Below are positions 4,822 through 63,713 of a stretch of DNA of 64,000 nucleotides, piece after piece (positions within the stretch are counted from its first letter, which is position 1; every line of letters begins with the position of its first letter). Location of the stretch: the IMG/VR virus record IMGVR_UViG_3300021960_000048, positions 18,792 through 82,791 of that record. The stretch is one strand, 5' to 3'. Under the pieces are notes generated by a model. The model did no database searches and was not told where the DNA came from. It saw only the letters and a list, made by a program, of their open reading frames with translations. Source of the DNA: a virus. Position numbers and translations under genes: made by a program.

Positions 4822-5205
4822 TCAACGGTCTAACCAGTGGGTTCTACCGCCCCAGTAGACATTAAAGCCCTCGTTCTGCAACTCAGCATACAATTCGTTT
4901 GTTAGTTGATTGCAGCCACATATACAGTCGCGGTCGTCTGCTGATGTGTTGTGAGGCACTTCAACTTCTAAGTCGTAAATGGTGTCGGGGAAGCGGCTTC
5001 TACCTTGGTTGACCCTGTGGTATGAAACTCTTGATGTGATTAAGTTGCGTGGGATTCCAACTGATGTAAGTGGGCGTACTCTGTAAGACCATACACGTAC
5101 GGATGTTGTTCCGTACCTTTGCATGTAACAGTCTCCGGGTTCTAAAGTTGGCCTGTCCGGTAGTTCTCTGATTTGTGTTATTAGTTCCGTGATGCGGTTG
5201 CTCAT
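4822..5205 (-). CDS. Stand-alone cassette gene 1, hypothetical (MSNRIT...)
   Basis: ORF with its own TTATATA box 22 nt upstream of the ATG. Confidence 0.75.
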   Translation of the reverse strand: MSNRITELITQIRELPDRPTLEPGDCYMQRYGTTSVRVWSYRVRPLTSVGIPRNLITSRVSYHRVNQGRSRFPDTIYDLEVEVPHNTSADDRDCICGCNQLTNELYAELQNEGFNVYWGGRTHWLDR

Positions 5206-5248
5206 GTTCTATCGGAAGGGGTTAGGGTATATAACATTATGCCTATAG
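5206..5248 (-). promoter_or_regulatory. Cassette promoter (TATA within ATATAAC-N6-GTTATAT-like palindrome)
   Basis: tatataac at 5228-5235; second TATA at 5244, 16 bp away; same layout as the other cassette promoters. Confidence 0.8.
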
Positions 5249-5281
5249 GGATTTAATGATGAGTGTTCCCCTAGTGATGTT

Positions 5282-5377
5282 ACACATACACTACCCTTGT
5301 ATGTGTGTGCCTGTAAGGGGTATTGGAATTGTATTAATTCTTGTAGAAGGGTTTCCCCCTACGGGGAAACACTTCTA
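5282..5377. repeat. Two DNA/RNA hairpins in an intergenic region
   Basis: ACACATACA-CTACCCT-TGTATGTGT (5282-5306) and TAGAAG-G-GTTTCCCC-CTAC-GGGGAAAC-A-CTTCTA (5344-5377). Confidence 0.75.
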
Positions 5378-5446
5378 ATGATGACCCCTTTTTGTTCACA
5401 TAGGATGATTACACTATATACATGCAAACCTTTATAAGTAAATACA

Positions 5447-5620
5447 CTGCCCCCAATACAGAAGCGAGGCGGCGGAAACAACGCCTCACAACTGCCCCTA
5501 GGCACATGAAGCCTACTAACGTGATGAATGAGATGGGGCGGCTTCTAACGCAGCACCCCTGTGATACAAGGGGTGGTCTGTCCCGATAGACAACCAATGC
5601 GAGTACACTATTCGGGGCAG
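5447..5620 (+). ncRNA. Candidate multi-branched structured RNA of about 175 nt
   Basis: Closing stem CTGCCCCCAATA/TATTCGGGGCAG. Internal stems AGAAG/CTTCT, GAGGCG/CGCCTC, CTGCCCC/GGGGCGG, TAGGC/GCCTA, CACCCCT/AGGGGTG, GTCTGT/ATAGAC. TATA-like sequences at 5415-5438. Strand tentative. Confidence 0.6.
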
Positions 5621-5621
5621 A

Positions 5622-7500: not shown

Positions 7501-7767
7501 GTGAAAGTTCTAACACCGACAAAAGGATATGCCCTAGTGAAGAGATGGATTCCCGAACAAACAACAACAAGTGGAATAATTATACAAGACGAAGCAGCGT
7601 CATATGGCTTTGGAGTGATAGAAGAAATTACTCCTTTTAGTGGAGAAAGCCCATACGAAAAAGGCGCTGTTGTTTTGATAGAAAAAGACTGTGGGACTTC
7701 CGTACAGTGGAATGGAAATGTTTGCTTGATGGTGAAGATAATGCACATAATAGGGGTGGTTGAATGA
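7501..7767 (+). CDS. groES: GroES-like co-chaperonin (GTG start at 7501)
   Basis: LTPTKGYALVKR..TTTSGIII (mobile loop)..KGAVVLI..LMVKIMHIIGVVE matches the Cpn10 layout; overlaps groEL start; TTAATA about 24 nt upstream. Confidence 0.85.
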   Translation: MKVLTPTKGYALVKRWIPEQTTTSGIIIQDEAASYGFGVIEEITPFSGESPYEKGAVVLIEKDCGTSVQWNGNVCLMVKIMHIIGVVE

Positions 7768-9338
7768 AGAAGTCAATATTTGGTGAAGAAGCAAGAGAAG
7801 CATTGATGAGAGGAATAAATGAGGTTGCTAATTCAGTTAAACCAACTCTCGGACCTGCTGCTAGAACTGTAATACTAGAGAGACAATTTGGCTCACCAGT
7901 TGTAATTAATGACGGTGTTACTATTGCTAAAGATATTGATATGAAAGAAGACCCATACGCAAATCTAGGTGTTCGTCTGATTCAAGAGGCAGCAAGTAAG
8001 GCTCAAGATAATGCAGGGGATGGAACAACTACCGCCTCTATCTTAACTCAGTCATTATGCAACAAAGGATTAGTTGAAATGAAAACAGGTCGTAACCCAA
8101 TACACATAAAGAAAGGATTCGATAAGGCAGTTGAGATAGCAGTAAAGTCAATCGAAGAAGCGGCTACCGAAGTCGATGATGATTCTTTGGTTCATGTTGC
8201 CACTATCGCAGCCAATAACGATGAAGCAATTGGTTCTCTGATTTCTCAAGCGTTTCAAAAAGTTGGCAGAGATGGAATTGTTTCAATCGAAGAGTCGAAC
8301 GGACTCGACACAACTTTGGAAATTGTAGACGGTCTTGAGTTTACTAAGGGTCTCCTTAGCGCCCACTTCATAACAGACACCGAAAAACAAACCACGACGA
8401 TGAAGAAACCATTGATTCTAGTTACCGATGAAATTGTTAGAACCGCTCAAGAAATTGTTGATGTTCTAAATTATGCAGCAGAAATGAAAAGACCGCTTTT
8501 GATTATCGCAGCAAAGATGGAAGGTGAGGCACTTGCTACACTTGCCCTTAACTGTTCACGTGGTATCTTAGAAGTCGCAGCAGTTGAAGCCCCTTCATTT
8601 GGTAATTCACGTGAAGAAATCCTAACCGATATTGCCACTGTTGTAGGAGCAATTCCGATTTTTGCCAGTAAGGGAATGTCAACTCAAAGGAACGGCATAG
8701 AATCACTAGGTGGTGCAAAGTCAGTTACTTGCTCGATGAAGAGAACAACAATAGTTGGTGGTCGTGGAACAGATGGTGATATTAAGAAAAGACAAGAAGC
8801 ATTAATCGCTCAATCGAAAGAGGCTGAAACTGATTGGGAAGCAGAGGCATTGAAAGCAAGAGCAGGGAAGATTTCTGGCGGTGTTGCAGTATTACACATC
8901 GGTGGTAAAACCGAAGCAGAGATGAAAGAAAGAATCGCACGTGTGGATGATTCATTGAACGCTACTAGAGCCGCTTTACAAGAGGGTATAGTGGTAGGTG
9001 GCTCTATCATGTATCTACGTGCTAGAGACGAGATACTAGATGCCTCAGACGACCATGAAGGCGACGAATGGCTAGGTATGATGATGGTACATGACGCACT
9101 AGCAGAGCCGTTCCATCAGTTGTGTTTTAACGCAGGTGTTGATAGTGATGAAGCATTAGAACAAGTCATAGAAATGAACGACCCTAACTACGGTCTAAAC
9201 GCTAAGACGTTGGAGTTTGGAGACCTCATTGAACAGGGTGTCATTGACCCTGCCAAGGTTGTCAAAAACTCACTGGAAACAGCCGCTTCGATTGCAGGGC
9301 TAGTCCTAACAACCGAAGTGCTTGTCGCCGAAGTCTAA
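7764..9338 (+). CDS. groEL: Group I chaperonin GroEL
   Basis: TLGP, INDGVTIAK, AGDGTTTA, GGVAVLHIGGKTEAEMKE, VIDPAKV motifs; no GGM tail. Confidence 0.97.
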   Translation: MKKSIFGEEAREALMRGINEVANSVKPTLGPAARTVILERQFGSPVVINDGVTIAKDIDMKEDPYANLGVRLIQEAASKAQDNAGDGTTTASILTQSLCNKGLVEMKTGRNPIHIKKGFDKAVEIAVKSIEEAATEVDDDSLVHVATIAANNDEAIGSLISQAFQKVGRDGIVSIEESNGLDTTLEIVDGLEFTKGLLSAHFITDTEKQTTTMKKPLILVTDEIVRTAQEIVDVLNYAAEMKRPLLIIAAKMEGEALATLALNCSRGILEVAAVEAPSFGNSREEILTDIATVVGAIPIFASKGMSTQRNGIESLGGAKSVTCSMKRTTIVGGRGTDGDIKKRQEALIAQSKEAETDWEAEALKARAGKISGGVAVLHIGGKTEAEMKERIARVDDSLNATRAALQEGIVVGGSIMYLRARDEILDASDDHEGDEWLGMMMVHDALAEPFHQLCFNAGVDSDEALEQVIEMNDPNYGLNAKTLEFGDLIEQGVIDPAKVVKNSLETAASIAGLVLTTEVLVAEV

Positions 9339-9802
9339 GACATAAGTGAAGCCAATTGTTGCACACTTATTGTTCGCGCATTTTCGTATGGTGGGTTAGC
9401 GATAGGGTCGAACACCCAAGCCGCGTCGTCTCGGTAGTCGCAAGTCCAACCAGTGCCTTCGATGTGGCAGAGTGTTGATATTACGAACTGATGCCATACG
9501 TTGAAACTACCAGACCATTTTTCACCTTCGTGGCTGCGGTGATTCCAGATAACAGTTTCATTAGGTTTAGTGTGGTCGGAACATACCCAAGATGCAGGGC
9601 GGTCGTCGCACCAGTCAGCCCAGTGTTCTAAGACAGTCATACCGCAGAAGTAAACATGGTCGTCTCTAACTTCGGCTCTTTCAGAGCGGCCAAAATGCTC
9701 TAATGAGATATTTAACTCTCTAACGATGTATTCAGCCCATGTCTCGTCTTCTCTTGTCCAACCTTCTTGTCTTCGTGTCTGCCAGTATTCTCTTGCTTTC
9801 AT
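9335..9802 (-). CDS. Stand-alone cassette gene 2, Trp-rich hypothetical
   Basis: ORF with TTATATA 22 nt upstream (9825-9831). Confidence 0.75.
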   Translation of the reverse strand: MKAREYWQTRRQEGWTREDETWAEYIVRELNISLEHFGRSERAEVRDDHVYFCGMTVLEHWADWCDDRPASWVCSDHTKPNETVIWNHRSHEGEKWSGSFNVWHQFVISTLCHIEGTGWTCDYRDDAAWVFDPIANPPYENARTISVQQLASLMS

Positions 9803-9858
9803 GTTCTACCGGAAAGGGTATTGGTATATAACATTAATTGTTCTATACTTTCACAAGC

Positions 9859-12800: not shown

Positions 12801-15303
12801 CAGGGGTGTCCGACCATAATAGAATGAGACTTCTCGCACTTGAGTTAGCGACCATTTGTCCCCATGTCGGTACAGCACCGAAGTTTGTTCCTGTATAATT
12901 ATTAGAAGTTCCAAAGTCTTGTACTGGCTCTGGATATTGAAATGCAGCCTCACCAGTGCCGCTCAGTGGGTCGCTTTGTTCACTTTCTATTGGGTTGCAT
13001 GTACGTGCCGATGAATCATAATAGAAACCCGGCGGGCATGGATTAGAGAAACCATCGGGATTCCAAGGCCAAGGGTTAATGTCGGGAGTTGGATATTCCC
13101 CATTACTAAATATCATATCTCGGTGAATAGCGGCCATCATCATCTTTCCATCTTCCATGATTCGCAATGACGAACAATGTAATGTTGGATGAAGTAACGA
13201 TGCTGCGTAGGATGTATGGTCCGGGTGTTTGGCCCGGTCTTTTCTTTCTTGACCTAAGTATCTCATTAGTTCAACTTGAGGAAATACCCAATCGTGGATA
13301 GTCCATTGATACATATATTCAGAGATAGAAATGCCAGTTCTAGTATCAAGAGATTCAGACTTACCCACTAATAGATTATACAATGGATTGTTTGTTGCAG
13401 TTGTAGTATCTTCGGTGTATAGAGCGTCATTGTTGGCTGTCCACTTGAATAGTAGTAGTTCACTACCTCTAGGATTCCCTGCTGCTCCATCACCACCATC
13501 AGCCCATACTTGCCCGTTGCCCCACACTGCCGAGTTGAAGTCCGAAGCGTCGATTGCATCTGCCCCTACAAGCAACTCTCCACCGTAAGCATCTGCGTCC
13601 CATAGATGTGAAATGCCACCCTGTTGATAGAATCCACCGGGTTCTACTGTGCCACATAACTTTGGTATTCTCGCCCATGATGGATTTGCTAAGGGTCTGA
13701 ATGGTGTCATCTGATGTAACCCCCATGCAGATTGTGTTACTTGTTTTGCTTGAGCGGTAGTTCCTAATTTAACACCTGTAAGTGTTGGGTCGAGTCTGAA
13801 TATAGCATGATAAATTGTTACGCTATCTTCGGAATAATTTGCTCGAATGTGAGACTGGGCTAATGTTGGTGCGCCCCTAGTATAGTCAACTGTTCCACCT
13901 GCTAGAACTCCCTTGGGTGTGTTAACAACTGATACTAAAATATGATAGTCAACAATTGGTTTTCTAAATGAAACGCCTTCGACTGTAACATTCTCATATC
14001 GAAGAATCGAAGGAACAACTTTGACACGGGTTGGAACTTTATCAGCAAGGAAGGTTGAGGATATTGCAGTTGTCTTAGTCCAAGCCCCTGTTCCTGTTAT
14101 GTCTCCATATATTCTTCCACCTGCCTGTGCTTGAACAGATGTTCGACTGCTGATTGTTGAAGTTCCATAACTCGTACTAGGAGCGGTTCTAATGTTCCTT
14201 CCTGTCATAAATGTAGTTTGGTTGTCATTGGTATCTCCAGATTGACCGGAGCGTCTAGCAGCAGTTCCTAGTGCTTCTTGTAGTGGAAATATAGGAGTAC
14301 CGTCTGTGTAGTTATATCGTGAACCAGTGGCTAAGGAAGAATCGTCATACCACTTACCATTTCTTAGTAGGGTTTGACCCGAATGAACTTGAACATTCAA
14401 CCCCGAATATGTTTCATCCGATTCACTCTCTGGCACACTATGAAACGCAGTAACAACTAACGCACCTTCGTAGCCAACAAGACCACATGAATCTACAACA
14501 ACGTGATTACCTCTTTCAACTGCTCCAATGGAATACGGTAAAGCATCACTGCCCTCAACAACTCTCGGAACTTGAATGGTTGAATAGTTAGTGAGAATGT
14601 TAGAAGTTTCAGTAGCAGATTCAGTGCTTGTTGGGGAAGTTAACGATGTACCACTAGCCAATACGGTTTGTCTTGCGCCTAAGTTAATCCCCCAGTATGA
14701 AGAAGTTGCCCCACTCTCTTCTGCTCTATCAAACATAGCCATATCACTTACCGACTTATCTGAGCGGTCTGCTACGAAACCAATGACTGAATATGCGGTG
14801 TTGTGAAACGACCCGAATGAAATCCCAAGCCCGTTCGATGGAAGGACTGTTGCTGCGTAATGAGCGATATTCAAAGGAGCGCCGTTAGTTGTAGTTCTAC
14901 CCAGAGTCAACTGATTATCTGTTGCAGGTATCGAAGTTGTATCTCTCTTGATAGAAAAAGTATGGTTAGCAGGTTGGCTACCTGTTTCAGTTCTTCTACT
15001 ATGCGCCCCGAACCTACCTGCTTCGGTGAAAGTCATGACTGTCCCCGAAACTGAAACGCTAGTTGCAGTGTTACTATGATGAGAACCCGTTACTGTTATG
15101 TTTTCTATTTGAGATGTTTCAAGCCAACCCATTTCACTATTCAGAGATGGGGGAGAAATGTTTAGCAGTAAGTCGTTTGTTGTAGGTGGTTGTGAAGGAG
15201 ACCATGTGTTGCGAAATGTACCTGCCGCATTAACAATAGAAGTCAAAGGGAGACCCGGTTCAGCACCAACAGGCGGTCTCATATCCACTGGGGAATAAGC
15301 CAT
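9859..15303 (-). CDS. Large virion/tail protein (1814 aa), probable beta-propeller adhesin region
   Basis: S/T/G-rich; repeated DSxGxxH-like blades (TPDGTLH, DSLGTIH, DSKDRLH, NGDGNTH); tail module position. Confidence 0.65.
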   Translation of the reverse strand: MAYSPVDMRPPVGAEPGLPLTSIVNAAGTFRNTWSPSQPPTTNDLLLNISPPSLNSEMGWLETSQIENITVTGSHHSNTATSVSVSGTVMTFTEAGRFGAHSRRTETGSQPANHTFSIKRDTTSIPATDNQLTLGRTTTNGAPLNIAHYAATVLPSNGLGISFGSFHNTAYSVIGFVADRSDKSVSDMAMFDRAEESGATSSYWGINLGARQTVLASGTSLTSPTSTESATETSNILTNYSTIQVPRVVEGSDALPYSIGAVERGNHVVVDSCGLVGYEGALVVTAFHSVPESESDETYSGLNVQVHSGQTLLRNGKWYDDSSLATGSRYNYTDGTPIFPLQEALGTAARRSGQSGDTNDNQTTFMTGRNIRTAPSTSYGTSTISSRTSVQAQAGGRIYGDITGTGAWTKTTAISSTFLADKVPTRVKVVPSILRYENVTVEGVSFRKPIVDYHILVSVVNTPKGVLAGGTVDYTRGAPTLAQSHIRANYSEDSVTIYHAIFRLDPTLTGVKLGTTAQAKQVTQSAWGLHQMTPFRPLANPSWARIPKLCGTVEPGGFYQQGGISHLWDADAYGGELLVGADAIDASDFNSAVWGNGQVWADGGDGAAGNPRGSELLLFKWTANNDALYTEDTTTATNNPLYNLLVGKSESLDTRTGISISEYMYQWTIHDWVFPQVELMRYLGQERKDRAKHPDHTSYAASLLHPTLHCSSLRIMEDGKMMMAAIHRDMIFSNGEYPTPDINPWPWNPDGFSNPCPPGFYYDSSARTCNPIESEQSDPLSGTGEAAFQYPEPVQDFGTSNNYTGTNFGAVPTWGQMVANSSARSLILLWSDTPAKNGKVRKGKAMFDIKYSTVDGASKGTQNWIEDDTWWSGSRIAYWFPESAQRAIPITYGSYPEGRCSHAVLPKCLPHILSDGSILHGYPYRQMTDRVSYLGYDTITTEKSGIDTWAVDRYQHLRKTRFIPTTIGFADFGSSASPYCEFGWAGWAFPAALYNTRSYDTTSYSEGDTDAPFAGLLSTNAARQLVGPLGGFSHFGPLHYGLSSQAHPYRTDRTWKQVHAGLGYDIPLHLLAPGQVQVRARAGGKGSLDLELETPFSRTDTLHLEGAAGLLSGFDAAGSGGTIGQSYLRTNLWADTGRRTTNSGNVLYNDILLPNELTGGPFVSGNSLSAFWVNHPTDHFHAGAIPIMTGSDYDWDKVYTAGQPHVTLARAQELSKKDWVAIAEQLKSSTEVHVSNHVRPYWDSGSIVNARGSTPSQSHVTTNREEMNDSASATGATEGYLGKGQRILRTPDGTLHQFTIGPSTKLNRGNQPTYVHYTKPPGSDLFWNRHAENLGSTTSGLDEVLLNSEIGSSALDSNDKIYGAAFASDSLGTIHAVIEVARDDSATITGAPIRRLFYTYATRNIVASSPDHVYKWDWSAVTPVNISATNNPYSTGDNMMQPTLVCDSKDRLHLAAVHFRNSASEYSIVYSIKEPNASWVALPSGSPTTWDDGRWVSVDNTTSGRIDSPKLALRSDDIPFIFFRKDNNTANAKVYACQGDLGSGTVHSFASPLYLHENDADVCDWYDAIINEEDRILVVCKLSKVNDVVANDVMITAMNSKDVLSSTTKTVKHLFHPISGDPFDMSNITMTTNGDGNTHIVVRWRSNLEYSTIPTPEDDGVYPLDWPSVKGGGITYSATTGVWTQRSHFMEIWLPSFEFDAATADENVIRSMNVRWLSIPSIKTDGTEWSILGAAETLAGSEDFSHNAPQLRYQRFWGHNAADLDLAWTTNPLAWYRTPHAGSSLYWPWSGALITRIGDQDNTAVIGTTNRHGF

Positions 15304-24615: not shown

Positions 24616-25032
24616 TTACTCTTCCATTAAGTCTTGGTAAAACGCTTCGGAGACGAAAGCAATACCGACGTAAAACTCGCCGTTGTCAGTATTTTCACCG
24701 GACTCGAACATTACTGCTCTAAGATTTCTGCTTCTAGCGATTTCAGATGGAGATACTAAGTCTCCCTCGATGGTCGCCATAATGTCGTAGCGTAGTACGT
24801 ATGGGGATAGAAGGTGGAATGATGAAAGGCCAGATGGATTTTCACCGTCGCAGTAAGCGTTTTCTGATTCGGTTCTGCGTGAGATGATTCTCTCTAAACA
24901 AGGAGATGGCCCGTTAAAGTATTGAGCCATAGTGTGATTCAATTCGATGTAACCTATTGAACCCTCTTGGATAATGTCATTCCAGTTGTCGGTGTTACGC
25001 ATGTCGTTTTCGGCTGTTATTGGGTTGCTCAT
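24616..25032 (-). CDS. Stand-alone cassette gene 3 (MSNPIT...)
   Basis: TTATATA 22 nt upstream; perfect ATATAAC-ACTTTA-GTTATAT at 25056-25075. Confidence 0.75.
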   Translation of the reverse strand: MSNPITAENDMRNTDNWNDIIQEGSIGYIELNHTMAQYFNGPSPCLERIISRRTESENAYCDGENPSGLSSFHLLSPYVLRYDIMATIEGDLVSPSEIARSRNLRAVMFESGENTDNGEFYVGIAFVSEAFYQDLMEE

Positions 25033-25078
25033 GTGTTAGGGGAGAGGGTGGGGGTATATAACACTTTAGTTATATGCT

Positions 25079-27182: not shown

Positions 27183-27353
27183 TCAGCGACAAGTAGTACC
27201 TGCGTACACTCTTTCACTTTGACAGTTGATACAAATGAAGATGATGTCTCCTGTCTCTCGGTCATAGTGTCGGTGTATGTCGTCAGCGTTTCTTTGGTGC
27301 ATTCCGCCACAGTCTTGGCATAGGTTGTCTGTTTGGTCTATTGGGTTGCTCAT
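27183..27353 (-). CDS. Stand-alone cassette gene 4, 56-aa Zn-finger microprotein (not in ORF track)
   Basis: MSNPIDQTDNLCQDCGG...FICINCQSERVYAGTTCR; TTATATA 22 nt upstream; perfect ATATAAC-CTTTGT-GTTATAT at 27377-27396. Confidence 0.75.
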   Translation of the reverse strand: MSNPIDQTDNLCQDCGGMHQRNADDIHRHYDRETGDIIFICINCQSERVYAGTTCR

Positions 27354-27395
27354 GTTCTAACGGAGAGGATGCCCCTATATAACCTTTGTGTTATA

Positions 27396-27686
27396 TTACT
27401 TTCTCTTTTTGTTCCACAAGTCAATGAGATACAATGCTTTTCTAGCGTCTCCTATTGGTTTGGGTTTTACTTTTTTGGGCTTTGGTCTGTCGGCAAAGCA
27501 AACTTCGCAGCGGGTCAACTTTGATTCGTCGGCTAGATATTTTTCTGGCATACCCGCGTCCGGTTGTTTACCACCGTCGCACTTACGAACTTTGTCATAG
27601 TAGACACTAACGAACTCGCCTTCACCTTCTACTCTTCTCACTTCTTTAAGCAAGTGAAGAACACTCCAGTTATACTTTTGACTCAT
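27396..27686 (-). CDS. Hypothetical protein
   Basis: ORF track; CEVC motif. Confidence 0.55.
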   Translation of the reverse strand: MSQKYNWSVLHLLKEVRRVEGEGEFVSVYYDKVRKCDGGKQPDAGMPEKYLADESKLTRCEVCFADRPKPKKVKPKPIGDARKALYLIDLWNKKRK

Positions 27687-27891: not shown

Positions 27892-27923
27892 AGTGTCGAG
27901 ACGGACTATATGTATATAAGACT

Positions 27924-47249: not shown

Positions 47250-47717
47250 TTAGTTGTATTTCATCATCATGTAAGTAGAAATATTTCTTTCCTTGAATTG
47301 TTTTCTCGCCCTAGTATTTTCAAATCTTAATATCTTGTTAGGTTGATACCATAAGTGATAGTGGTCTTTAGTTCCAGATTTGACTTTGAAGTGTTTACCT
47401 ATCAACGTAGTTGCTTTACTTGCTACTATGTAAGGAAGAATCGGTCCAATATCTCTATCGGGATGACTAGGCCAACAAGCATTGAATATTCTAAGACTGG
47501 CCTCTTGTATAGTTGGGGCTGAGATTGCTTGAATCACAATTGCGTTTATCTCATCTTGAAATGCTTCTGTTTCTTTCTGCGCTTCTGCATACATCATATC
47601 TTTGAAGTGATTGTACGTACCGTAGTTATCTAAGAGTATTCTTCTAGCCTCATGATGAGTAAACCCACACTTGATTCTCAAGGTTCGATACATGTCTCTT
47701 TTCCAAGTCTCTTTCAC
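47250..47717 (-). CDS. Hypothetical protein
   Basis: ORF overlapping the PolB stop. Confidence 0.6.
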   Translation of the reverse strand: MKETWKRDMYRTLRIKCGFTHHEARRILLDNYGTYNHFKDMMYAEAQKETEAFQDEINAIVIQAISAPTIQEASLRIFNACWPSHPDRDIGPILPYIVASKATTLIGKHFKVKSGTKDHYHLWYQPNKILRFENTRARKQFKERNISTYMMMKYN

Positions 47718-50876: not shown

Positions 50877-51860
50877 TCACATCGTTAAATTACGCACAAA
50901 ACACTTCAATGCCAGTGCGGGGTCTTGACTTACCGAGACATGGTGTAAAGCATTTCCGATGTGCGTCAGAATCTTATGACGTAGTTTATCGGGCATCCTC
51001 TCATCTATCGTGGTGAGATTGTATATGGAATGAAGTATATCGGACGGCATCATTCCTTGTGATATTAGGTTGTCAATGTCCTTGTCTATCTTTCTATAAG
51101 CATCGAGATTCTTTGCTTTAACAATTGAAGTAAGAATCTTTTTTGCTTCTTTTGGTTTTATTGTTTGAACAATATCTTCAACATCTTCGATTACGATTTC
51201 TCCGGGGACGAGACAAATTATCTGGAGTAAGTTAACGCATGTCCTTAGCGAACCGTTGCTCGATTTTATCGTACGCTTCAATGCCTCTTCGGTAAACTCA
51301 CATTTTGCGTTCTTCGCATATGATGAAATGAAGTTGCTCATTGTTTCATCGTCAATTGGTTTGAACCGAGATGTTGAGAATGCACATCTATCTTGAATGG
51401 GTTGTATTATCTTATGAGGATAGTTACAAGAGATAATGAATATTGTTTTGGAATACTTCTCCATTATTCTACGTAGAGCCGCTTGAGCATCGGGAGTGAG
51501 ATTATCGGCCTCATCAAGAAAGACTACATTGAATGGAATTGGTTTTTCTTCTCCATCAACAGTGTAACTACCGATTACACCTCGACTCGCAAACTCTTTG
51601 ACTTTCGTTCTAATGACGGAGATACTTCGCTCATCACTTGCGTTCAGTTCTAACCAATTCTCTTTCCAACTTTCACCAAACGCTGTTCGCATCAAAGCAA
51701 TAGCCGTTGAAGTTTTACCGACACCCGCTGGACCTGCGAACATCATATGAGGCCAATTGAAATTATTCGATTCAACCATTTGGTTGAGTCTCTTTACTAT
51801 GTGGTCTTGACCTAGAACATCGTTCAAAATGTTTGGTCTTATTTCATCAGAGATGGGCAT
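50877..51860 (-). CDS. rfcS: Replication factor C small subunit
   Basis: RP..LNDVLGQ, GPAGVGKT, LELNASDER, FLDEADNLT..AQAALRR, SCNY, QDRC. Confidence 0.95.
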   Translation of the reverse strand: MPISDEIRPNILNDVLGQDHIVKRLNQMVESNNFNWPHMMFAGPAGVGKTSTAIALMRTAFGESWKENWLELNASDERSISVIRTKVKEFASRGVIGSYTVDGEEKPIPFNVVFLDEADNLTPDAQAALRRIMEKYSKTIFIISCNYPHKIIQPIQDRCAFSTSRFKPIDDETMSNFISSYAKNAKCEFTEEALKRTIKSSNGSLRTCVNLLQIICLVPGEIVIEDVEDIVQTIKPKEAKKILTSIVKAKNLDAYRKIDKDIDNLISQGMMPSDILHSIYNLTTIDERMPDKLRHKILTHIGNALHHVSVSQDPALALKCFVRNLTM

Positions 51861-51902
51861 GGAAACTAAGAGGATATTCACACCTTAATAAAAGGTGTAA
51901 TA

Positions 51903-52235
51903 TTATCTCCAGTCTCTACCGCCGCCATGTGTGTTGTATTCGAGTTTGTCAACTAAGTCTTGATGGAACTCAACTAAACCCCAAGTGATTGTCGAATGTC
52001 CTTTCATTGTCTGTTGACTCTCATTCATAACCATGAACCGTTCGTCTCTACGTAGTAGATTAGATAATTGATTTGTTGTTGGAAATAACCTCGGTCTTTT
52101 GCCGTTTTTGGTTCGGACACCTTCGGTAATTTTCATTGAGGTGGCTGGTCCATTTTGTTCCAAGTAGTCATACACTCTCTGTATGTTCGCACGATGTTTT
52201 CTATTTCTCGGCTTTGGTCTTTCACTTTCAATCAT
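51903..52235 (-). CDS. Winged-helix DNA-binding protein
   Basis: VYDYLEQNGPATSMKI..TTNQLSNLLRRDERF..TWGL. Confidence 0.6.
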   Translation of the reverse strand: MIESERPKPRNRKHRANIQRVYDYLEQNGPATSMKITEGVRTKNGKRPRLFPTTNQLSNLLRRDERFMVMNESQQTMKGHSTITWGLVEFHQDLVDKLEYNTHGGGRDWR

Positions 52236-55974: not shown

Positions 55975-56385
55975 TCAGCGGCGGCCTTTTTTGTATGCTC
56001 TTGTATTTCTTGCTTTGGCTGCCTCAGTTCCTCGCGCCCATTTTACTTTTGAAAGTCCGCCTTGATGAGATGCACCGATTCTCTGAACCCATGCTTTATC
56101 CATTGGTTGAGTTGACCTTCTTAGGTATGCGGTCTTGACTTGACCTTGAACTATGATTAGAACTACCATGTCGCCGTTGGATTCGTAACCAGTGTTGTCG
56201 GTCATTCGGCGTTGGCTTAGGTCTAGTGCTACAACTGCCACGGCTCTATGACCGGCGTTGTATGCGTTATCCCATTCGCGTTGGCTAACTGTGATTGCCT
56301 GTTTTAACTCGCCTTCAACCAATCTGATTGAGGCTCTATCTAGTGCGTGTTTTGTGCCGGTTAGTGTCGGTGCTTGGGTTGTCAT
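55975..56385 (-). CDS. Cassette gene 8, possible BECR/RelE-fold RNase-like protein (start MTTQAP)
   Basis: TKHALDRASIR and VKTAYLR resemble HAxxRxxxR/VxT motifs; perfect ATATAAC-ATGTAG-GTTATAT at 56410-56429. Confidence 0.5.
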   Translation of the reverse strand: MTTQAPTLTGTKHALDRASIRLVEGELKQAITVSQREWDNAYNAGHRAVAVVALDLSQRRMTDNTGYESNGDMVVLIIVQGQVKTAYLRRSTQPMDKAWVQRIGASHQGGLSKVKWARGTEAAKARNTRAYKKGRR

Positions 56386-56537
56386 CAGTCTACGGGAGAA
56401 GATGCCCCTATATAACATGTAGGTTATATGAACCTCAACAAAGGCCCTCTTTCCACCATACCGGGAAGCCCTCATTTAAGTCGCATTCTTTGAGCATTTC
56501 AAACTCTTCGGACATGATTAAAACTTGAACTTTCATT

Positions 56538-58430: not shown

Positions 58431-58610
58431 TTGAACTACCTCAGACCTGCCGAGAGGCTGCCTACTAATAAGGGTATCTATAGTTCGATTTCACTATAAC
58501 TAGAGAATCTTAAAACAGAAAGACTATAAACCCTTAACCCATATCACTAACCCCGTATCGACCTTCCGGGTACGGCTACGACAAAAAAAGACGATTTCAA
58601 TAATTGCCCG

Positions 58611-58774: not shown

Positions 58775-59782
58775 TTATTCGGTTGTGATTCCGTCAAGTA
58801 CACCCTCGGCCAACTCGCTTGAAGAGTCTGGGCCTTCGTGGCGGTCGGGTGCGCCAGTGATGACCCACTCCGCCGCCGCTATGCTTCTCGATAGTGCTTT
58901 GAGAATTGCCGCTCTTGCTTCTTTTTGTGGTGTACGAGAAGCCCAACCGCTAAGGTATGCACTTGAACGGGTTAGGTCTGCTTCATAGCCTAGAGCGCCA
59001 CACGCCGCGATTGAAGCCAGTTCCGCGATTAGTTCCTCTGTTGCGTAGTCTGTGCCTCTTGAGGTCATGCCTTCAAGTGGACGTGCTAGTCTGTGAGGGT
59101 GGCCGGTTGCGTGTGCTGCTTCGTGAAGTAATACAGCGGCGTAGTCGTTCTCTGATTCCCATGCGGTCAACGGTGGCATAGTGATTACGTCTGTTCTTGG
59201 TGTGTAGTAAGCAGCGCCACCAGTTGCGAAAGTAACTCCCTTCAAGTTTGACTCTACGGTGCTTAATAGGTCGCTAACTTCTACAGGCTCGTTAATTTCT
59301 ACGTTGAGCCTCTTGAAAGCCCACTCGCTCGGAATATTTGTATTTTCGATATTCCAAACAGCATAGCCAGTAAAGCCAGTCAAGAAGCGAGAAGTCTCTT
59401 CGTCGTCGCCTTCTTTCGATTTTACTTTGTATTGAATAGGTCTAAAGTGATAAGTGTCTGCTTTGCCACCCTTTACGAATGCGACTAATTCCGTATTGTT
59501 TTCTTTGTTGTATTCTTCGATTAATTTCTTTGCTTGACCTGCTGCAACGAATAAAGGACTTGAGTAATTATTTCGGCTCATTGCCATAATTGATGCCCAT
59601 ACATTAAGACCTGTGAAACCTTTCCCTGTGTGTCCGTTTGTTGGACTGAAAAGGCCATTCCAAGGCTTAGACCATTGAGGGAGATTACCCTCGCTGATTT
59701 GTGAAATTACTTCGTCAGCAATTTCATTCATTCTTTCTTGTGTCGTCGTTTTTGGCTTTCGTGTTCGGCTCATTTGCGTCAT
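58775..59782 (-). CDS. ardC: ArdC-like antirestriction protein (ssDNA-binding domain plus zincin metallopeptidase)
   Basis: PQWSKPW, NGHTGKGFTGLN, AYYTPRTDVITMP, LLHEAAHATGHPHRLAR, YATEELIAEL, SAYLSGW. Confidence 0.9.
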   Translation of the reverse strand: MTQMSRTRKPKTTTQERMNEIADEVISQISEGNLPQWSKPWNGLFSPTNGHTGKGFTGLNVWASIMAMSRNNYSSPLFVAAGQAKKLIEEYNKENNTELVAFVKGGKADTYHFRPIQYKVKSKEGDDEETSRFLTGFTGYAVWNIENTNIPSEWAFKRLNVEINEPVEVSDLLSTVESNLKGVTFATGGAAYYTPRTDVITMPPLTAWESENDYAAVLLHEAAHATGHPHRLARPLEGMTSRGTDYATEELIAELASIAACGALGYEADLTRSSAYLSGWASRTPQKEARAAILKALSRSIAAAEWVITGAPDRHEGPDSSSELAEGVLDGITTE

Positions 59783-59929
59783 CTCCAAGTAAGCGGAGCG
59801 GGTATCACTATATGAATACTACTATAGTTATATCAGGATATTAGTTAAGAATCATATAACTGAAAGATTATATACCGCCATCTCGTCTTAGACACGGGGT
59901 GGACGGCTCTGCTAAAGCATCGAGGAAAT

Positions 59930-59972
59930 AAAAAAAGGGCGACCCCGCCCCAAACCGGGACGAGGCCGCTTT
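59930..59972 (-). terminator. GC-rich hairpin plus U-tract
   Basis: GCGGCCUCGUCCC-GGUUU-GGGGCGGGGUCGC then U7; paralog at 60311-60350. Confidence 0.75.
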
Positions 59973-59978
59973 ACGGTT

Positions 59979-60155
59979 TTACAGAGTGAACTCTTCACGC
60001 TCGACGACTTCGCCGCACCCTTGACAAGTGCAAGCCGACCAAGCGAAGTGATACACTTTGAACGACGCACCACATGAAGGGTGTGTCAAAAGTTTTCCAT
60101 TCTTACCGGCGCGAGACCTGCCGCTTGCATATTTCGTGTTATTGTTTCGTGTCAT
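59979..60155 (-). CDS. 58-aa Zn-ribbon microprotein (not in ORF track)
   Basis: MTRNNNTKYASGRSRAGKNGKLLTHPSCGASFKVYHFAWSACTCQGCGEVVEREEFTL; GAGGT RBS; leader shared with the 60754 gene. Confidence 0.8.
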   Translation of the reverse strand: MTRNNNTKYASGRSRAGKNGKLLTHPSCGASFKVYHFAWSACTCQGCGEVVEREEFTL

Positions 60156-60310
60156 TTATGTTACCTCAGACCTACCGAGAGGCTTCCGCCTTATCAATAC
60201 TTCTATATTTATATCTGGATATAATCAGTAATTGATATAACCGAAAGATTATATACCCCCATCCCGTCAGAGAAACGGGGTGGACGGCGATTTTTTACCA
60301 CCGGGTAAAG

Positions 60311-60350
60311 AAAAAAAAGCGACCCCGCCCATATAGAGCGAGGCCGTTTA
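60311..60350 (-). terminator. GC-rich hairpin plus U8
   Basis: CGGCCUCGCUC-UAUAU-GGGCGGGGUCG then U8. Confidence 0.75.
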
Positions 60351-60370
60351 CGATTTTCACTTATTCAATT

Positions 60371-60754
60371 TTAGAATGTGTCTCTGCTTAGTTCTCTTGA
60401 ATTGTAGTTCTCAGAGCCTCTGAATATTACGGTTAGTTCGCCGTAGAGATTTTGAGCGCGGAAGCGGCTAAACAGTGAGTCAAATACAACGCCTTGAAGG
60501 TCGTCCATTCTACTGAAGAAGTTAGGGTTTGAAGATTCAGGGTCTTGAGTAGTTCCGTAGTCGCCAGAGATGTCATATTCGTCCGGGTTCACTGTGATTA
60601 TTACTTCCCAGTTAGTACGAGACTTGTGCCATACTTCTGTAAATAATATGCCGAGAATTGCATGTCCTTGCGTCATTAGCGCATTAACATATAATTCCTC
60701 GTCGATTTCGTTCGCTCGCATTCTTGGGTTGCCGTAGTCAATATTTCGTGTCAT
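60371..60754 (-). CDS. Early-region acidic hypothetical protein (MTRNID...)
   Basis: ORF with own promoter, RBS and terminator. Confidence 0.7.
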   Translation of the reverse strand: MTRNIDYGNPRMRANEIDEELYVNALMTQGHAILGILFTEVWHKSRTNWEVIITVNPDEYDISGDYGTTQDPESSNPNFFSRMDDLQGVVFDSLFSRFRAQNLYGELTVIFRGSENYNSRELSRDTF

Positions 60755-61252
60755 TGATGTTACCTCAGACTATCCGAGAGGCCACCGGGTATTAAAGATA
60801 TCTATATGTTAATCTGTATATAATCAGTAATTAATATAACCGAAAGGTTATAAACCCGCATCTCATCTCGTAAACGGGGTTGGATGCGAGGACTGAGGAA
60901 CCGGGCCAGTGGCCGGGTCTTGAAGCCGCCCGCCCACCCCCTATGAGGTAAGGCTTAGGTATTAAACTTTTCTATAGTTTGATTATCATATACTTCAGAT
61001 GTATATAACCGAAAGGTTATAAACAATTAACCCATATCACTAACCCCGACTTCAAAAATCGCGCGGAAATGTGAGACCTATATAGGCGAAAGACTATAAG
61101 CAATTAACCCATATCACTAACCCCGTCTATACATCGCGACCCTACAAAGTGAGAATGCTACAGGCAAACATTCATATAGTATGACTTCCTCTGAGGATTA
61201 TGGGCCGAGGTGCGTAGCGTATGCTTTTTTGAAAATGTGGAAAAATTGTGGA

Positions 61253-61353
61253 AAGTATCGACTAAGTATCGAGTAAACGTGCATCAAATGTGAGAAGTAT
61301 CGGCTAAGTATCGAGTAAATGAGCAGTTTTAATCGGAAGTATCGACTAAATCG
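61253..61353. repeat. Phased direct repeats AAGTATCG (iteron/pac-like)
   Basis: AAGTATCGRCTAAGTATCGAGTAAA at 61253 and 61295, partial at 61337; 42-bp outer and 11-bp inner period. Confidence 0.85.
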
Positions 61354-61916
61354 TCATCCGTCTCTGCTTTGTTCTCGATGTCAATAATCTCTTTCTGTAG
61401 AACCTCACGCATCTGTTCCAACGGGTCGTAGCCAATGTTTACTATTACCTGTGGCTTTGCGTCTTGCGCTCCAGACATCTTGTCCAGTCCGTCCTGTTGT
61501 TTGATTAGACCACCAACCATGAACGACACTTGACCCAACTTCGACACGGTGTCTGCTTGTTCTTCTGCTTTGATGATTAGACGTTCCATTCTTTCCATAG
61601 AACGCCTTCTTCTTGCATATGAATCCAACCTAAGCCAGTCCGTATCGTCGAGTTCAGCCTTCATCACTACCATCTCTCGCATATTTTCCGCTAATTTTCC
61701 GGCATCGGACATAAGGCGATTCCATTCATCGGGGTCGAGTCGCCTCTCTAAACTTGCATCTGCCACTTTTCTTCGTATCTGGCTAGGCTTCATTCCTCGG
61801 ACCAGTAATTGTGCTGTCCACCTTACTAGAGGGTCATGTTCGTTCTCTCTTGTATCAGCAGGTAGTGTTTCGCCATCCCACTCATCAACTTCATCAAAGT
61901 CGTCTTTCATATACAT
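61329..61916 (-). CDS. Putative terminase small subunit
   Basis: N-terminal HTH-like AQLLVRGMKPSQIRRKV, helical core, C-terminal strand PQVIVNIG; typical TerS architecture, no direct homology check. Confidence 0.45.
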   Translation of the reverse strand: MYMKDDFDEVDEWDGETLPADTRENEHDPLVRWTAQLLVRGMKPSQIRRKVADASLERRLDPDEWNRLMSDAGKLAENMREMVVMKAELDDTDWLRLDSYARRRRSMERMERLIIKAEEQADTVSKLGQVSFMVGGLIKQQDGLDKMSGAQDAKPQVIVNIGYDPLEQMREVLQKEIIDIENKAETDDDLVDTSD

Positions 61917-61951
61917 CAGATATACTTCGTTGTGGTAATTCACGTTTTCGG

Positions 61952-62896
61952 TTACAGATTTACCCAGCGCGGGGCTTCGCCAGCGAACCATTTCTCTAAT
62001 TTTTCAAAGGAAACATCATCGGTTTCAGTAGGAATATGCGTAGGGTCGGAGTAGTCAATTAACGTAGCAGCGTTAGAAGAAACGATAACATTCCAAGGCC
62101 GTACATCACCATGACTGCCTATCTCCTTCCGAACATCATCGAGTATCAAAAATGGAACAGGTTTCGTTCCTTGAAAGTATTTCCACGTATGCAAATTAAT
62201 ACCCGGCAGCCAATCACGACGTGGCTCTTTACTATCCATGAACATCACTTCTTTACTATCCCAATCCGAGATAATCTTGAGACGCGGCTTCAAATGTTTA
62301 GGGCATCCAATATATCTTTGACCGAGACGAGTCCGAGATTGCTGCGACAAAAAGATAGGTCGTACGCCGCCGTCAAGGTGCGACTTACCTTCTCCAAGCC
62401 TTTCCCAGTCCTCTCCTATCTCCCAAGCCTGTACTAGCCTCTGTCCACACGCATTGGACTCAGTAGGCATCTCAAAGATGACGTTATCTCCTAGGTTCTC
62501 GATGAGTTGACACGTTCTATTCACATCTCCATTGATATGATGAACAACCGACATTGCCAATACTAAATCAAAATGTTCGACATCACCAAGAAGTGCCAAG
62601 TCTCCTTGCGTCATACTTTTTGTCAACACGATTCCTTGTCCGTTGATACCAGCCAACTCTGTTAATTGACGGGCGTACGTAGGATGTCCTTCAACCATCA
62701 CCGCGTGGCAGTTCTCAAAATCTTCCATCAATCTGAAAGAGAAATATCCAAGATTAGCACCGATGTCTAAAACTGTAAATGGTCGATTGAATTGTTTGGC
62801 TATCGACTTAATTATCTCATACCTATCGGCACACTCACGTACGCCATCACCATCTGCTTTGCCTCTTACCCAACGGGTCTGATACTGTTCCACCAT
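61952..62896 (-). CDS. SAM-dependent methyltransferase fused to a kinase-like remnant (WbdD-like architecture)
   Basis: VLDIGANLGYFS, FDLVLAMSVVHH; C-terminal HGDVRPWNVIV..LIDY. Confidence 0.75.
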   Translation of the reverse strand: MVEQYQTRWVRGKADGDGVRECADRYEIIKSIAKQFNRPFTVLDIGANLGYFSFRLMEDFENCHAVMVEGHPTYARQLTELAGINGQGIVLTKSMTQGDLALLGDVEHFDLVLAMSVVHHINGDVNRTCQLIENLGDNVIFEMPTESNACGQRLVQAWEIGEDWERLGEGKSHLDGGVRPIFLSQQSRTRLGQRYIGCPKHLKPRLKIISDWDSKEVMFMDSKEPRRDWLPGINLHTWKYFQGTKPVPFLILDDVRKEIGSHGDVRPWNVIVSSNAATLIDYSDPTHIPTETDDVSFEKLEKWFAGEAPRWVNL

Positions 62897-63064
62897 CTAT
62901 CTCAGTATGGCGAGGCACTCGATACACTTGTAAATTGTGCGGCCAAAGAATCGTCTTGTCTTTACTTCTTTGACTTTAACATCACACTCACACCACTCGC
63001 AATAATTGTTTCCAGACTTTTCAATTGCTGCATCAATATCAGAATCATTATCATAACGCTTCAT
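62897..63064 (-). CDS. 55-aa Zn-finger microprotein (not in ORF track)
   Basis: YCEWC..YKCIEC; GAGGTGA RBS. Confidence 0.6.
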   Translation of the reverse strand: MKRYDNDSDIDAAIEKSGNNYCEWCECDVKVKEVKTRRFFGRTIYKCIECLAILR

Positions 63065-63298
63065 CGTATTTCTCACCTCTTAGTGTGGTTTAAGGTCATT
63101 GGGTAATGACCCAAAAGGTCCGGTTTCTATTTTATTACTTGAAAGATAGTACCAGATTTCATGTGTATGTCTGCACCATTCTCATGATACACAACTGCCG
63201 CTATTTCTGTTTTCAAGATTCTAGCAGTACCAGTTTTTACATTCACGTCAAATATATTGTCGTCCTTCTCTTTTCCAAATATTTTCTTGAACTTCATT

Positions 63299-63604
63299 TC
63301 ACTCACTGTCCATTATTGCATATGGTAGAGACTCGCCATGACATTCGTCGCAGTCTCCGTCGTATGCTGTTGCCTTAATTTCTTCACCGTAGTTGTAAGG
63401 TTCGTCCTCAAGACATAAACAGATGGAACAGATGTTCATACTGCCCTCTATATGTGTATGTCCGTCCATGTCAACGTCTCTAATACTGCAAAGATACATT
63501 CCTGTCAAAGATGATGGTTTCATTTTCCACTTCTCAGCCATTACTGCGTTTCCTTGCTTTAGTCTCTTTACTCGCTCACTTGCTTCTGCACTTGTTCTGC
63601 TCAT
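63299..63604 (-). CDS. Cys-rich hypothetical protein
   Basis: CSIC and CDEC motifs. Confidence 0.55.
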   Translation of the reverse strand: MSRTSAEASERVKRLKQGNAVMAEKWKMKPSSLTGMYLCSIRDVDMDGHTHIEGSMNICSICLCLEDEPYNYGEEIKATAYDGDCDECHGESLPYAIMDSE

Positions 63605-63713
63605 TTTTTATGTCTCCTTTTGTATGCTGCCTTCCGTTTGAAGTATTCTTCCCACGTCATGCTGTTTTCTCCGATAATGCTGTAGTATATAATATGTATG
63701 TTATATGCCCCTC

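Follow-up and report, generated by a model that had tools for sequence, protein, structure and literature searches.

The window analyzed here is a 64,000-nucleotide stretch that covers bases 18792-82791 of the 82.8-kb genome of a magrovirus-like tailed archaeal virus of marine origin. Pfam matches identify an HK97-type morphogenesis module, PolB and a clamp loader. The virus also encodes a GroEL-like chaperonin on the plus strand, as do magrovirus groups B and C (PMC5434244). The contig ends overlap by ~2 kb at 90% identity, which points to a terminally redundant genome, and because of this overlap a promoter site at genome position 1693 is the same locus as that at 63692. The gene content is that expected of a magrovirus, a virus of Marine Group II archaea with a terminally redundant genome of ~80-100 kb. 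A search of the magrovirus literature returned nothing on the control of transcription.

A predicted promoter of one type, about 50 bases long in each copy, heads roughly a dozen small unrelated genes of this virus. The sequence-only reading had listed nine such sites in the window, and all nine are present on the minus strand. Class I promoters lie outside the late region, ahead of isolated genes, at 5206-5250 (TATA box 5228-5234, degenerate distal arm CTATAGG), 9803-9847 (TATA box 9825-9831) and 56386-56431 (perfect palindrome 56410-56429, inside a longer mechanical ORF reaching 56475). Their payload genes encode proteins of 127 aa (4822-5205, beginning MSNRI), 155 aa (9335-9802, convergent with the plus-strand chaperonin gene) and 136 aa (55975-56385), respectively, none with a family match. 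The late region contains class I promoters at 25033-25077 (perfect palindrome 25056-25075, BRE-like AAAG), 27354-27398 (perfect palindrome 27377-27396), 29348-29392 (palindrome 29371-29390 with one mismatch), 33634-33677 (TATA box 33655-33661, distal arm GATATAGG) and 40280-40324 (TATA box 40302-40308, distal arm CACAAAAC and not ATATAAC). These head genes for a 138-aa protein (24616-25032, MSNPI), a 56-aa CxxC...CxxC microprotein (27183-27353), a 63-aa protein (29156-29347, MSNQI), a 53-aa Cys-rich microprotein (33472-33633) and a 260-aa DUF6011-containing protein (39497-40279) upstream of the large terminase. The four N-termini MSNRI, MSNPI, MSNPI and MSNQI are present as claimed, and the payload genes of the window belong to separate families. 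Family searches of the payload genes yielded no recognizable function.

The class I-like site at 63661-63708, whose palindrome has one mismatch, had also been read as a gene promoter. The site exists, but what follows it is just a 19-codon ORF (63601-63660), and the stop of this ORF overlaps with the start of the next gene, which encodes a 101-aa Cys-rich protein (63299-63604) and is led by a Shine-Dalgarno sequence. Several sites were absent from the earlier reading, including a variant strong TATA promoter on the minus strand at 27892-27935 (TATA box 27913-27919, 21 nt before the ATG at 27891), a site at genome position 14822 outside the window, and weaker TATA variants at ~53144 and ~50555. 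The promoter at 27892-27935 heads a 73-aa gene (27670-27891) for a three-helix protein that occurs clade-wide in 16 members, always with a TATA box ahead. On the plus strand, a copy of the palindrome, BRE and TATA box without an ORF lies at 59854-59900 (site at 59868) and is followed by CGGGGTGGACGGC, and a second palindrome copy without an ORF lies at 60235-60290 (site at 60249) and is followed by a hairpin and a T6 run.

The spacing of the element is nearly invariant. As claimed, the gap from TTATATA to the ATG is 22 nt at 5205, 9802, 25032, 27353, 29347 and 40279, 21 nt at 33633, 23 nt at 56385 and 25 nt at 63660; nine of ten window sites have a gap of 21-23 nt. In the non-redundant genome, the first ATG lies 21-25 nt downstream of a coding-strand TTATATA in 11 of 15 cases, compared with 6.7% at random positions (binomial P ~1e-10). 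Archaeal TATA boxes are centered about 26-27 nt ahead of the transcription start, and the TATA boxes here are centered at about -26 from the ATG. If transcription is assumed to start at the ATG, this geometry fits a canonical archaeal BRE/TATA promoter for a leaderless mRNA. Position -1 is C in eight of ten sites and T in one, which fits a pyrimidine-purine initiator, and the 22-nt TATA-ATG interval of the cassette sites contains no Shine-Dalgarno sequence (GGAGG or GGTGA). AAAG, CGAAAG or TGAAAG precedes the TATA box at roughly half of the sites and an A-rich spacer (ACAT, AAAT, TAAT) at the others, a partial match to the archaeal BRE consensus CGAAA (PMC4983044).

The palindrome ATATAAC-N6-GTTATAT is strongly overrepresented, with 11 matches at two or fewer mismatches in the window against 0.35 expected. 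It is perfect at 25056, 27377 and 56410 and has one mismatch at 29371 and 63687, in agreement with the earlier reading; the copies at 33656 and 40303 have two mismatches, and that at 5229 has more than two. Conservation spans ~55 nt and takes in the distal arm, the first 4-5 codons and positions outside the core, and the promoter regions within the genome resemble one another at a level detectable by BLAST. Core late genes instead have a weaker GTTAATACC box or a Shine-Dalgarno site, and the class I motif was not found before them.

A set of 80 related IMG/VR loci was used for comparison. Among these loci the TATA-to-ATG gap is 22 nt in 102 of 146 cases, 21 nt in 29 and 23 nt in 11, so that 142 of 146 fall within 21-23 nt. 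Only AAC-N6-GTT of the palindrome persists in the near clade, the distal arm reads CACAAAAC in L009 and ATAGGC or ATAGAC in the distant clade, and distant relatives keep mainly TATA, GG.G and ..CTACG.TTAAAC. In distant relatives, the same promoter type also precedes some core genes (glycosyltransferase, tail fibre gene).

Do the genes behind these promoters behave as exchangeable cassettes? The moron-like organization suggested from the window is supported by the relatives. A given slot, inserted between conserved late genes, can contain an unrelated gene, cassettes in tandem or no gene at all, and some payload families sit in different slots or modules in different viruses. The payloads form 56 families, 28 of which are singletons. 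The G94/H145 slot measures 40-84 nt in L065, L072, L073, L074, L075 and L077 and 432-552 nt when filled, and other slots vary from 240 to 1713 nt. The slot of 24616-25032 contains no gene in six distant relatives and an unrelated gene of 114-126 aa in L009 and L010; that of 29156-29347 holds at least four unrelated gene families across nine relatives; and that of 27183-27353 contains in L001 two tandem cassettes, each with its own, nearly identical promoter copy, including a new 33-aa gene. Payloads also diverge faster than their neighbors, with identities in L001 of 46-85% versus 86-99% for flanking genes; the 53-aa gene at 33472-33633, for example, is 67% identical between flanking genes at 94-98%. 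Homology ends past ATGAGCAACCAA and returns at GGTTCAA ahead of the next gene's promoter. The GC content of payload genes (45.5%) differs only slightly from that of core genes (42.8%).

Not all of these genes are variable. The 260-aa gene starting at 40279 is 96-98% identical in the closest relatives and conserved in the near clade, with its slot occupied by 56-73-aa Cys-rich genes in L060 and L079, and the 73-aa gene behind the same promoter type is clade-wide. These two conserved genes are therefore not accessory.

We propose that the element is probably a strong archaeal core promoter, specific to the virus lineage, that heads small accessory genes, which are gained, lost, duplicated and replaced in fixed slots. 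Read from the predicted anatomy, each copy would comprise an A-rich BRE-like spacer, GTTATATA at -30 to -23 from the ATG, a C4 or G4 block, CTCCGnTAGAAC and a C/A initiator, and the host TBP, TFB and RNA polymerase would start transcription at or beside the ATG to produce leaderless mRNAs. Over evolutionary time, promoter-gene units would come and go between conserved genes, with replacement probably by recombination that falls, at the left, within the common promoter and initial codons and, at the right, immediately ahead of the weak late promoter of the following gene. If Sulfolobales viruses are a guide, the cassettes are likely to be expressed apart from the late genes, probably early, and their payloads would be candidates for host-takeover or anti-defense functions.

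An alternative that we consider unlikely, though the most probable of three, is that these are ordinary operon-head promoters of the late region, each followed by a short, fast-evolving first ORF and then by read-through into structural genes, with no separate cassette system. The promoters do divide the module into groups that would make plausible operons (terminase-portal, protease-capsid, connectors and tail), and very long transcripts span the morphogenesis module of halovirus HF2 (PMC8707807). The genes ending at 24616, 27183, 29156, 33472 and 39497 are followed by neither a T5 run nor a hairpin; a hairpin or T-rich tract occurs only past 4822, as a GGGGGG/CCCCCC hairpin, and past 55975, as a hairpin with a T-rich tract. 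The proposed role of each cassette as a single-gene transcription unit is putative, since cassettes of the late region lack terminators and their transcription may run on into late genes; the units at 63660 and genome position 14793 head multi-gene runs. However, the genes downstream of most cassettes each have a TATA-like box 22-25 nt before the ATG and no Shine-Dalgarno sequence. Moreover, the late genes stay intact in distant relatives with empty slots, the tandem duplication in L001 brings a promoter together with a new gene, and the same promoter precedes isolated genes outside the late region (5205, 9802 and 56385). In run X1, an abundant assembled RNA contig over the capsid and protease genes stops at 33366, short of the cassette at 33472-33633, a weak, contig-level hint in the same direction.

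It is very unlikely that each gene independently converged on the optimal consensus promoter of the Poseidoniales host, with neither common descent nor a dedicated regulator. BRE, TATA box and initiator are generic archaeal elements, and distant relatives retain mainly TATA, GG.G and ..CTACG.TTAAAC, but conservation over ~55 nt that includes non-core positions, the nearly identical tandem copies in L001 and the BLAST-detectable similarity between promoter regions argue against convergence. Still less probable is that the 7-6-7 palindrome is primarily a recombination site at which a site-specific recombinase moves integron-like cassettes, since the inverted repeat with its fixed 6-nt spacer and the differing cassettes of relatives are outweighed by one arm that forms a canonical TATA box with exactly the spacing to the ATG expected of a promoter, by a distal arm that is lost or altered in relatives still exchanging cassettes, by a right-hand border at which no matching repeat was found, and by the lack of any integrase or recombinase family among the 40 window proteins scanned.

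Returning to the proposed accessory-gene promoter, a regulator probably binds at the conserved distal arm, which spans -43 to -37 (ATATAAC, core AAC-N6-GTT). The gene at 40313-40759 on the minus strand encodes a protein with an N-terminal winged helix and a C-terminal beta-alpha-alpha, ribbon-helix-helix-like tail, a tail confined to the near clade, and this wHTH/RHH-like protein is a possible candidate regulator of the distal arm. The suggested dimeric regulator that occludes TBP/TFB was an inference only, and it is not favored by the distal arm of L009 or the distant relatives, which is not palindromic. A bolder scheme, which we regard as doubtful, would give the ~55-bp block of distal arm, BRE, TATA box, initiator and first 4-5 codons a double use, both as an early promoter under the control of a viral dimeric wHTH/RHH protein that recognizes AAC-N6-GTT and as a homology handle for swapping small anti-defense or host-takeover genes among fixed slots of the late module. 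If this scheme is true, promoter-bounded exchange would parallel the PeSL shuffling of T4 in an archaeal system and would provide a ready-made catalogue of anti-defense genes for the uncultured Marine Group II archaea.

The sequence-only reading knew of no description of this architecture, but related systems have been described (PMC11065993, PMC8707807 and PMC2839356). In Sulfolobales viruses, conserved regulatory sequences precede early or putative anti-defense genes (Bhoobalan-Chitty et al. 2024, PMC11065993). As in those viruses, a strong BRE/TATA promoter lies here within a longer virus-specific consensus, where "virus-specific" is meant relative only to other genes of the virus. The consensus is likewise repeated ahead of small, unrelated and poorly conserved genes, mostly single ones in the Sulfolobales viruses, and a small DNA-binding protein is the presumed regulator. 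The combination used in that study, a strong predicted promoter with a shared surrounding regulatory sequence in one genome, is found here, and inverted repeats overlapping the BRE in SMV2 were taken as a repressor site (PMC11065993). Unlike the Sulfolobales rudi-, lipothrix-, bicauda- and fuselloviruses, the present virus is a tailed, Caudoviricetes-type virus of marine archaea. Its units are interleaved with late structural genes and not clustered at genome ends, they combine a strict 22-nt leaderless geometry with common first codons, and early expression and an anti-defense role are putative.

In the archaeal tailed virus HF2, intergenic repeats of class I (58 bp) and class II (29 bp) have been demonstrated to act as promoters (Russ et al. 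2021, PMC8707807). The two viruses resemble each other in having two classes of repeated intergenic promoter sequences. In HF2 the longer class accompanies earlier genes and the short class is found in the morphogenesis arm; the repeats are presumed to be bound by factors that the virus encodes, and some TATA elements are bidirectional. In HF2 and its relatives, however, both the repeats and the places where they lie are strongly conserved, with no link to variable payload genes. The sequences of the two viruses show no similarity, and here the strong class occurs within the late module.

The morons that Hendrix and colleagues described in lambdoid and other tailed phages are extra, variable genes with their own promoter, placed between two genes found side by side in related phages. 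Classical morons have sigma-70 promoters and a terminator, often with deviant base composition. The units here are similarly inserted between genes adjacent in relatives, with their own predicted promoter. Because the same positions carry different genes, extra copies or nothing, we regard these units as archaeal counterparts of phage morons and their payloads as candidate early or anti-defense genes. Unlike morons, they have an archaeal, leaderless promoter common to all units, no late-region terminator and only slightly different composition. The mobile regulatory PeSL cassettes of T4-type phages offer a second bacterial parallel (Arbiol et al. 2010, PMC2839356; PMC4122927). In both systems, variable genes adjoin copies of a conserved promoter motif, and PeSL copies have been proposed to mediate modular shuffling by recombination. 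PeSL combines a bacterial early promoter with a stem-loop terminator, whereas neither a stem-loop partner nor any conserved hairpin adjoining the promoters was found here; the cassettes are bordered by the promoter and by GGTTCAA ahead of the weak promoter of the following gene. The surface ocean is rich in Marine Group II archaea and their viruses, which are uncultured. The fixed 22-nt leaderless geometry provides an annotation rule that corrects start codons and finds microproteins of 33-70 aa. Because the promoter marks accessory genes with fast turnover, these genes would be the best candidates for anti-defense or host-takeover functions, by the logic validated in Sulfolobales viruses, and the moron/PeSL idea of promoter-linked gene shuffling would extend to archaeal tailed viruses.

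The promoter feature of this virus is real and highly non-random. All of the promoter sites claimed in a sequence-only reading are present on the minus strand, where TTATATA precedes the ATG by 22 nt for the genes starting at 5205, 9802, 25032, 27353, 29347 and 40279, by 21 nt at 33633, by 23 nt at 56385 and by 25 nt at 63660. Across the non-redundant genome, 11 of the 15 coding-strand TTATATA copies have their first ATG 21-25 nt downstream, compared with 6.7% of random positions (P ~1e-10). The palindrome ATATAAC-N6-GTTATAT is perfect at 25056, 27377 and 56410 and, with up to two mismatches allowed, has 11 copies in the window where 0.35 would be expected, a count reached in 0 of 100 shuffles. 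The shared N-terminus MSN(R/P/P/Q)I was likewise confirmed in four genes, and the payloads, the small genes behind the promoters, are unrelated to one another as proposed, their proteins sorting into separate families. Further sites had been overlooked, namely one at 27913 (minus strand) that heads the gene starting at 27891, one at genome position 14822 outside the window, plus-strand promoter copies lacking an ORF at 59868 and 60249, and weaker variants near 53144 and 50555. The 63660 site is atypical in that the ORF behind it has 19 codons and a stop that overlaps a Shine-Dalgarno-led gene of 101 aa. The mechanically called ORF at 55975-56475 (166 aa) contains a promoter, and the real start of this gene is probably the ATG at 56385 (136 aa).

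The window comprises bases 18792-82791 of a single virus contig of 82,791 bp, has a GC content of ~43% and carries almost every gene on the minus strand. The 2-kb stretches at the two ends of the contig (genome 1-2000 and 80789-82791, the latter being window 61998-64000) match at ~90% identity, which reflects terminal redundancy, an imperfect terminal repeat or assembly from two strains, and the unit genome is ~80.8 kb. Because the contig ends overlap, the promoters at genome 1693 and window 63692 represent one locus. A Pfam scan of the window proteins identified an HK97-type capsid protein (30685-31749), prohead protease (31779-33425), portal (35059-36516), large terminase (37935-39461), tape measure protein (20910-23552), family B DNA polymerase (47714-50305), clamp-loader ATPase (50877-51881), an AAA/vWA pair, a helicase, an ArdC-like protein and a GroEL-like Cpn60-family chaperonin (7764-9338, plus strand). 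When the chaperonin was queried against genome contigs, the best match was a bacterium (41% identity), a Nanoarchaeia MAG was also matched and no Poseidoniales chaperonin was returned. The chaperonin gene is the sole long plus-strand gene and converges on the cassette gene at 9335-9802 with a 4-nt overlap at its end. In its gene set, its terminally redundant genome and its possession of a GroEL-type chaperonin, the window virus matches the magroviruses of Marine Group II archaea (PMC5434244). Outside the window, genome 3850-9870 contains extensive internal nucleotide repeats of 70-80% identity (self-BLAST) within genes for 847-aa and 1141-aa products, which are repetitive structural proteins.

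Three start types are used by the virus genes. In the first, strong class, a near-clade consensus aligned on the ATG consists of a distal arm, (a)tAAc, at about -43 to -37, an A-rich spacer of 6 nt that often reads AAAG or CGAAAG, the TATA element GTTATATA at -30 to -23, a CCCC or GGGG block followed by CTCCGnTAGAAC, a C at -1, and the ATG followed by AGCAACC.AA. This is the layout of the canonical archaeal core promoter, in which a purine-rich element directly precedes a TATA element centred about -26 and the start is pyrimidine/purine. The BRE consensus of haloarchaea is CGAAA (PMC4983044). No Shine-Dalgarno sequence was found in the 22-nt interval between TATA and ATG at the strong-class sites, and in the simplest reading, which places the start site from sequence, transcription would begin on the ATG to give a leaderless mRNA. 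A literature search yielded no specific account of promoters or leaderless mRNAs in Marine Group II. The second type, the 'late promoter' of the sequence-only reading, is a weaker (c)GTTAATAcC-like box that lies 22-25 nt before the ATG of many morphogenesis genes lacking a Shine-Dalgarno sequence (upstream of 24527, 27146, 28286, 28684, 30601, 33425, 36516, 37901 and 39461) and is moderately enriched at this spacing. Distant relatives retain the weaker promoter, for example as GTGATAAACC and TCAATAACCCC. The third type comprises closely spaced genes whose ribosome sites read GGTGA or GGAGG. An equal frequency of the motif before core late genes would have counted against the proposal of the sequence-only reading, but the capsid, protease, portal, terminase and tape measure genes all lack the strong element.

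What distinguishes the genes behind the strong promoter? We compared 80 related IMG/VR loci with capsid identities of 64-99%, including several complete genomes of 78-82 kb. The exact palindrome is absent in relatives beyond the nearest clade, and a looser TATA-spacing scan, which collected genes with 25 or more codons downstream of a TATA heptamer, was therefore applied to the 80 loci and the window genome. Among the 146 genes obtained, the spacing is 22 nt in 102, 21 nt in 29 and 23 nt in 11, so that the whole virus group shares the fixed geometry. These genes fall into 56 families, 28 of which are singletons. In slots defined by conserved flanking genes, the content behind the promoter changes. 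Across nine relatives, the slot between the 170-aa and 129-aa connector-region genes holds at least four unrelated genes, all behind the strong promoter (55-63 aa beginning MSNQI, 104-112 aa with a GWFDH motif, 54 aa and 91 aa). The pre-protease slot contains Cys-rich genes of 52-55 aa or genes of 98, 105 or 113 aa, often as two tandem cassettes with one TATA box each. Ahead of the tail-tube gene, the near clade has a filled slot of 432-552 nt, compared with 40-84 nt in six distant relatives.

A close relative, L001, whose capsid is 99% identical, carries an additional CxxC gene of 33 aa, behind a near-identical second copy of the promoter, beside the homologue of the 27353 gene (tandem cassettes at 13634-13764 and 13784-14016, encoding 33 aa and 67 aa), where the window has a single cassette. 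Its payloads are 46-85% identical to those of the window virus, compared with 86-99% for flanking genes, and thus diverge faster. When one slot is aligned across seven viruses, homology spans the upstream gene and the promoter up to ATGAGCAACCAA, is then lost and returns at GGTTCAA, just upstream of the weak promoter of the next gene, thereby defining the cassette borders. Payloads also change slots: one family lies between the homologue of the 205-aa gene and the portal gene in L043 and before a glycosyltransferase gene in L060, L069 and L079; another lies before the terminase gene in L079 and near the tail fibre gene in L067; and the 54-aa gene occupying the L010 slot has a 62-aa homologue in another module of the window genome (43% identity, E = 1e-10). 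Unrelated payloads, empty slots, tandem copies and slot changes in relatives back the proposal of moron-like, exchangeable cassettes, and these sequence comparisons support gain, loss, duplication and exchange of promoter-gene units that behave like morons. Variability does not extend to the 260-aa and 73-aa genes. Conservation of the 260-aa DUF6011 protein is 96-98% among the closest relatives and 62% in the relative L009, the 73-aa gene behind its strong promoter is clade-wide, and in distant relatives the strong promoter type also precedes a glycosyltransferase gene and a fibre gene. Some strong-class promoters therefore head non-variable genes.

No recognisable function was found for any payload in Pfam, PHROGs or ESM Atlas; Pfam and PHROGs returned only weak zinc-ribbon hints and, for the 260-aa protein, DUF6011, and ESM Atlas gave no usable match for the 155-aa and 138-aa proteins. 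No recombinase was found among the proteins of a non-exhaustive scan, in which Pfam was applied to the window, to the right of the first 18.8 kb of the genome. Neither a T-run nor a hairpin follows the late-region cassettes, and read-through into the late genes is therefore possible; the cassettes are putative single-gene transcription units. Relatives of the region occur as assembled contigs in four metatranscriptome runs, with cover highest over the capsid and protease genes. One RNA contig ends at 33366 and none of those listed spans the cassette at 33472-33633, in a type of data, assembled contigs, that cannot show RNA starts or absence. We hypothesize that the cassettes may be expressed early.

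The proximal arm of the palindrome is the TATA box itself. The distal arm is well conserved in the window virus and its closest relatives, reads CACAAAAC in four L009 slots and at 40303 in the window, and becomes ATAGGC or ATAGAC in the distant clade; the near clade shares only AAC-N6-GTT, and no compensatory change between the arms was found on comparing the window virus with its relatives. Archaeal activators and repressors bind around -43 to -37, and the conserved element at this position is therefore a plausible, putative regulator site. That the palindrome acts as the operator of a repressor is a hypothesis. The 40313-40759 protein, encoded directly upstream of one strong promoter, models as a winged helix, with top Foldseek matches to Orc1/Cdc6, TFE, PadR, MarR and Lrs14-type winged-helix domains (E 0.007-0.2), and carries a C-terminal beta-alpha-alpha tail that looks ribbon-helix-helix-like. 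Among its homologues, this tail is restricted to the clade with the AAC-N6-GTT arm, a correlation over two clades, and the protein is only a lead as a candidate binder of the distal arm. Assignment of the tail as a ribbon-helix-helix was not retained: the Pfam hints were non-significant (SeqA_N, E = 0.067), and whole-protein Foldseek returned winged-helix matches only. The second protein suggested earlier, 51903-52235, has a winged-helix look by eye and no significant family match. The 73-aa protein (27670-27891) was considered as a regulator but received no DNA-binding assignment: its AlphaFold model was confident (pLDDT 93, three helices), and neither its sequence nor its fold matched an entry in the PDB.

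A shared leader, CCTCTCGGnAGGTCTGAGGTA, precedes three minus-strand ATGs (58431-58460, 60156-60185 and 60755-60785) and could form a CCTC/GAGG stem-loop that includes a GAGGT ribosome site. The stretch 59780-61340 is ORF-poor and contains repeated units and several palindrome/TATA copies in both orientations; downstream of the two plus-strand copies, at 59868 and 60249, come a short hairpin (CCCGT...ACGGG) and GTGGACGGC, with a T6 run at 60285. No Rfam family matched in the window, and this stretch may encode small RNAs or represent a control or origin region.

The best explanation of the feature is a strong leaderless promoter, specific to this lineage, behind which fast-turnover accessory genes occupy fixed slots of a magrovirus. 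The promoter is useful for annotation and provides a candidate list of putative anti-defence genes. The magrovirus literature that we searched makes no mention of promoters. Morons are a bacterial analogue of promoter-linked accessory units. The T4 PeSL cassettes, which combine a promoter with a stem-loop, are another (PMC2839356). The terminator and stem-loop parts that define these two systems were not found here. Two intergenic repeat classes of halovirus HF2 are demonstrated promoters (PMC8707807); these are conserved in position and have no tie to variable genes. Among described systems, the closest is a conserved regulatory sequence of Sulfolobales viruses that lies before early genes which are small, unrelated to one another and mostly single. 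The sequence places a strong BRE/TATA within a virus-specific consensus, has inverted repeats over the BRE in SMV2, and has been used to predict anti-defence genes (PMC11065993). The text of that study does not mention Caudoviricetes or euryarchaeal viruses. Under its two sequence criteria, the magrovirus genes described here would count as such candidates. The promoter-cassette feature is not a new principle.
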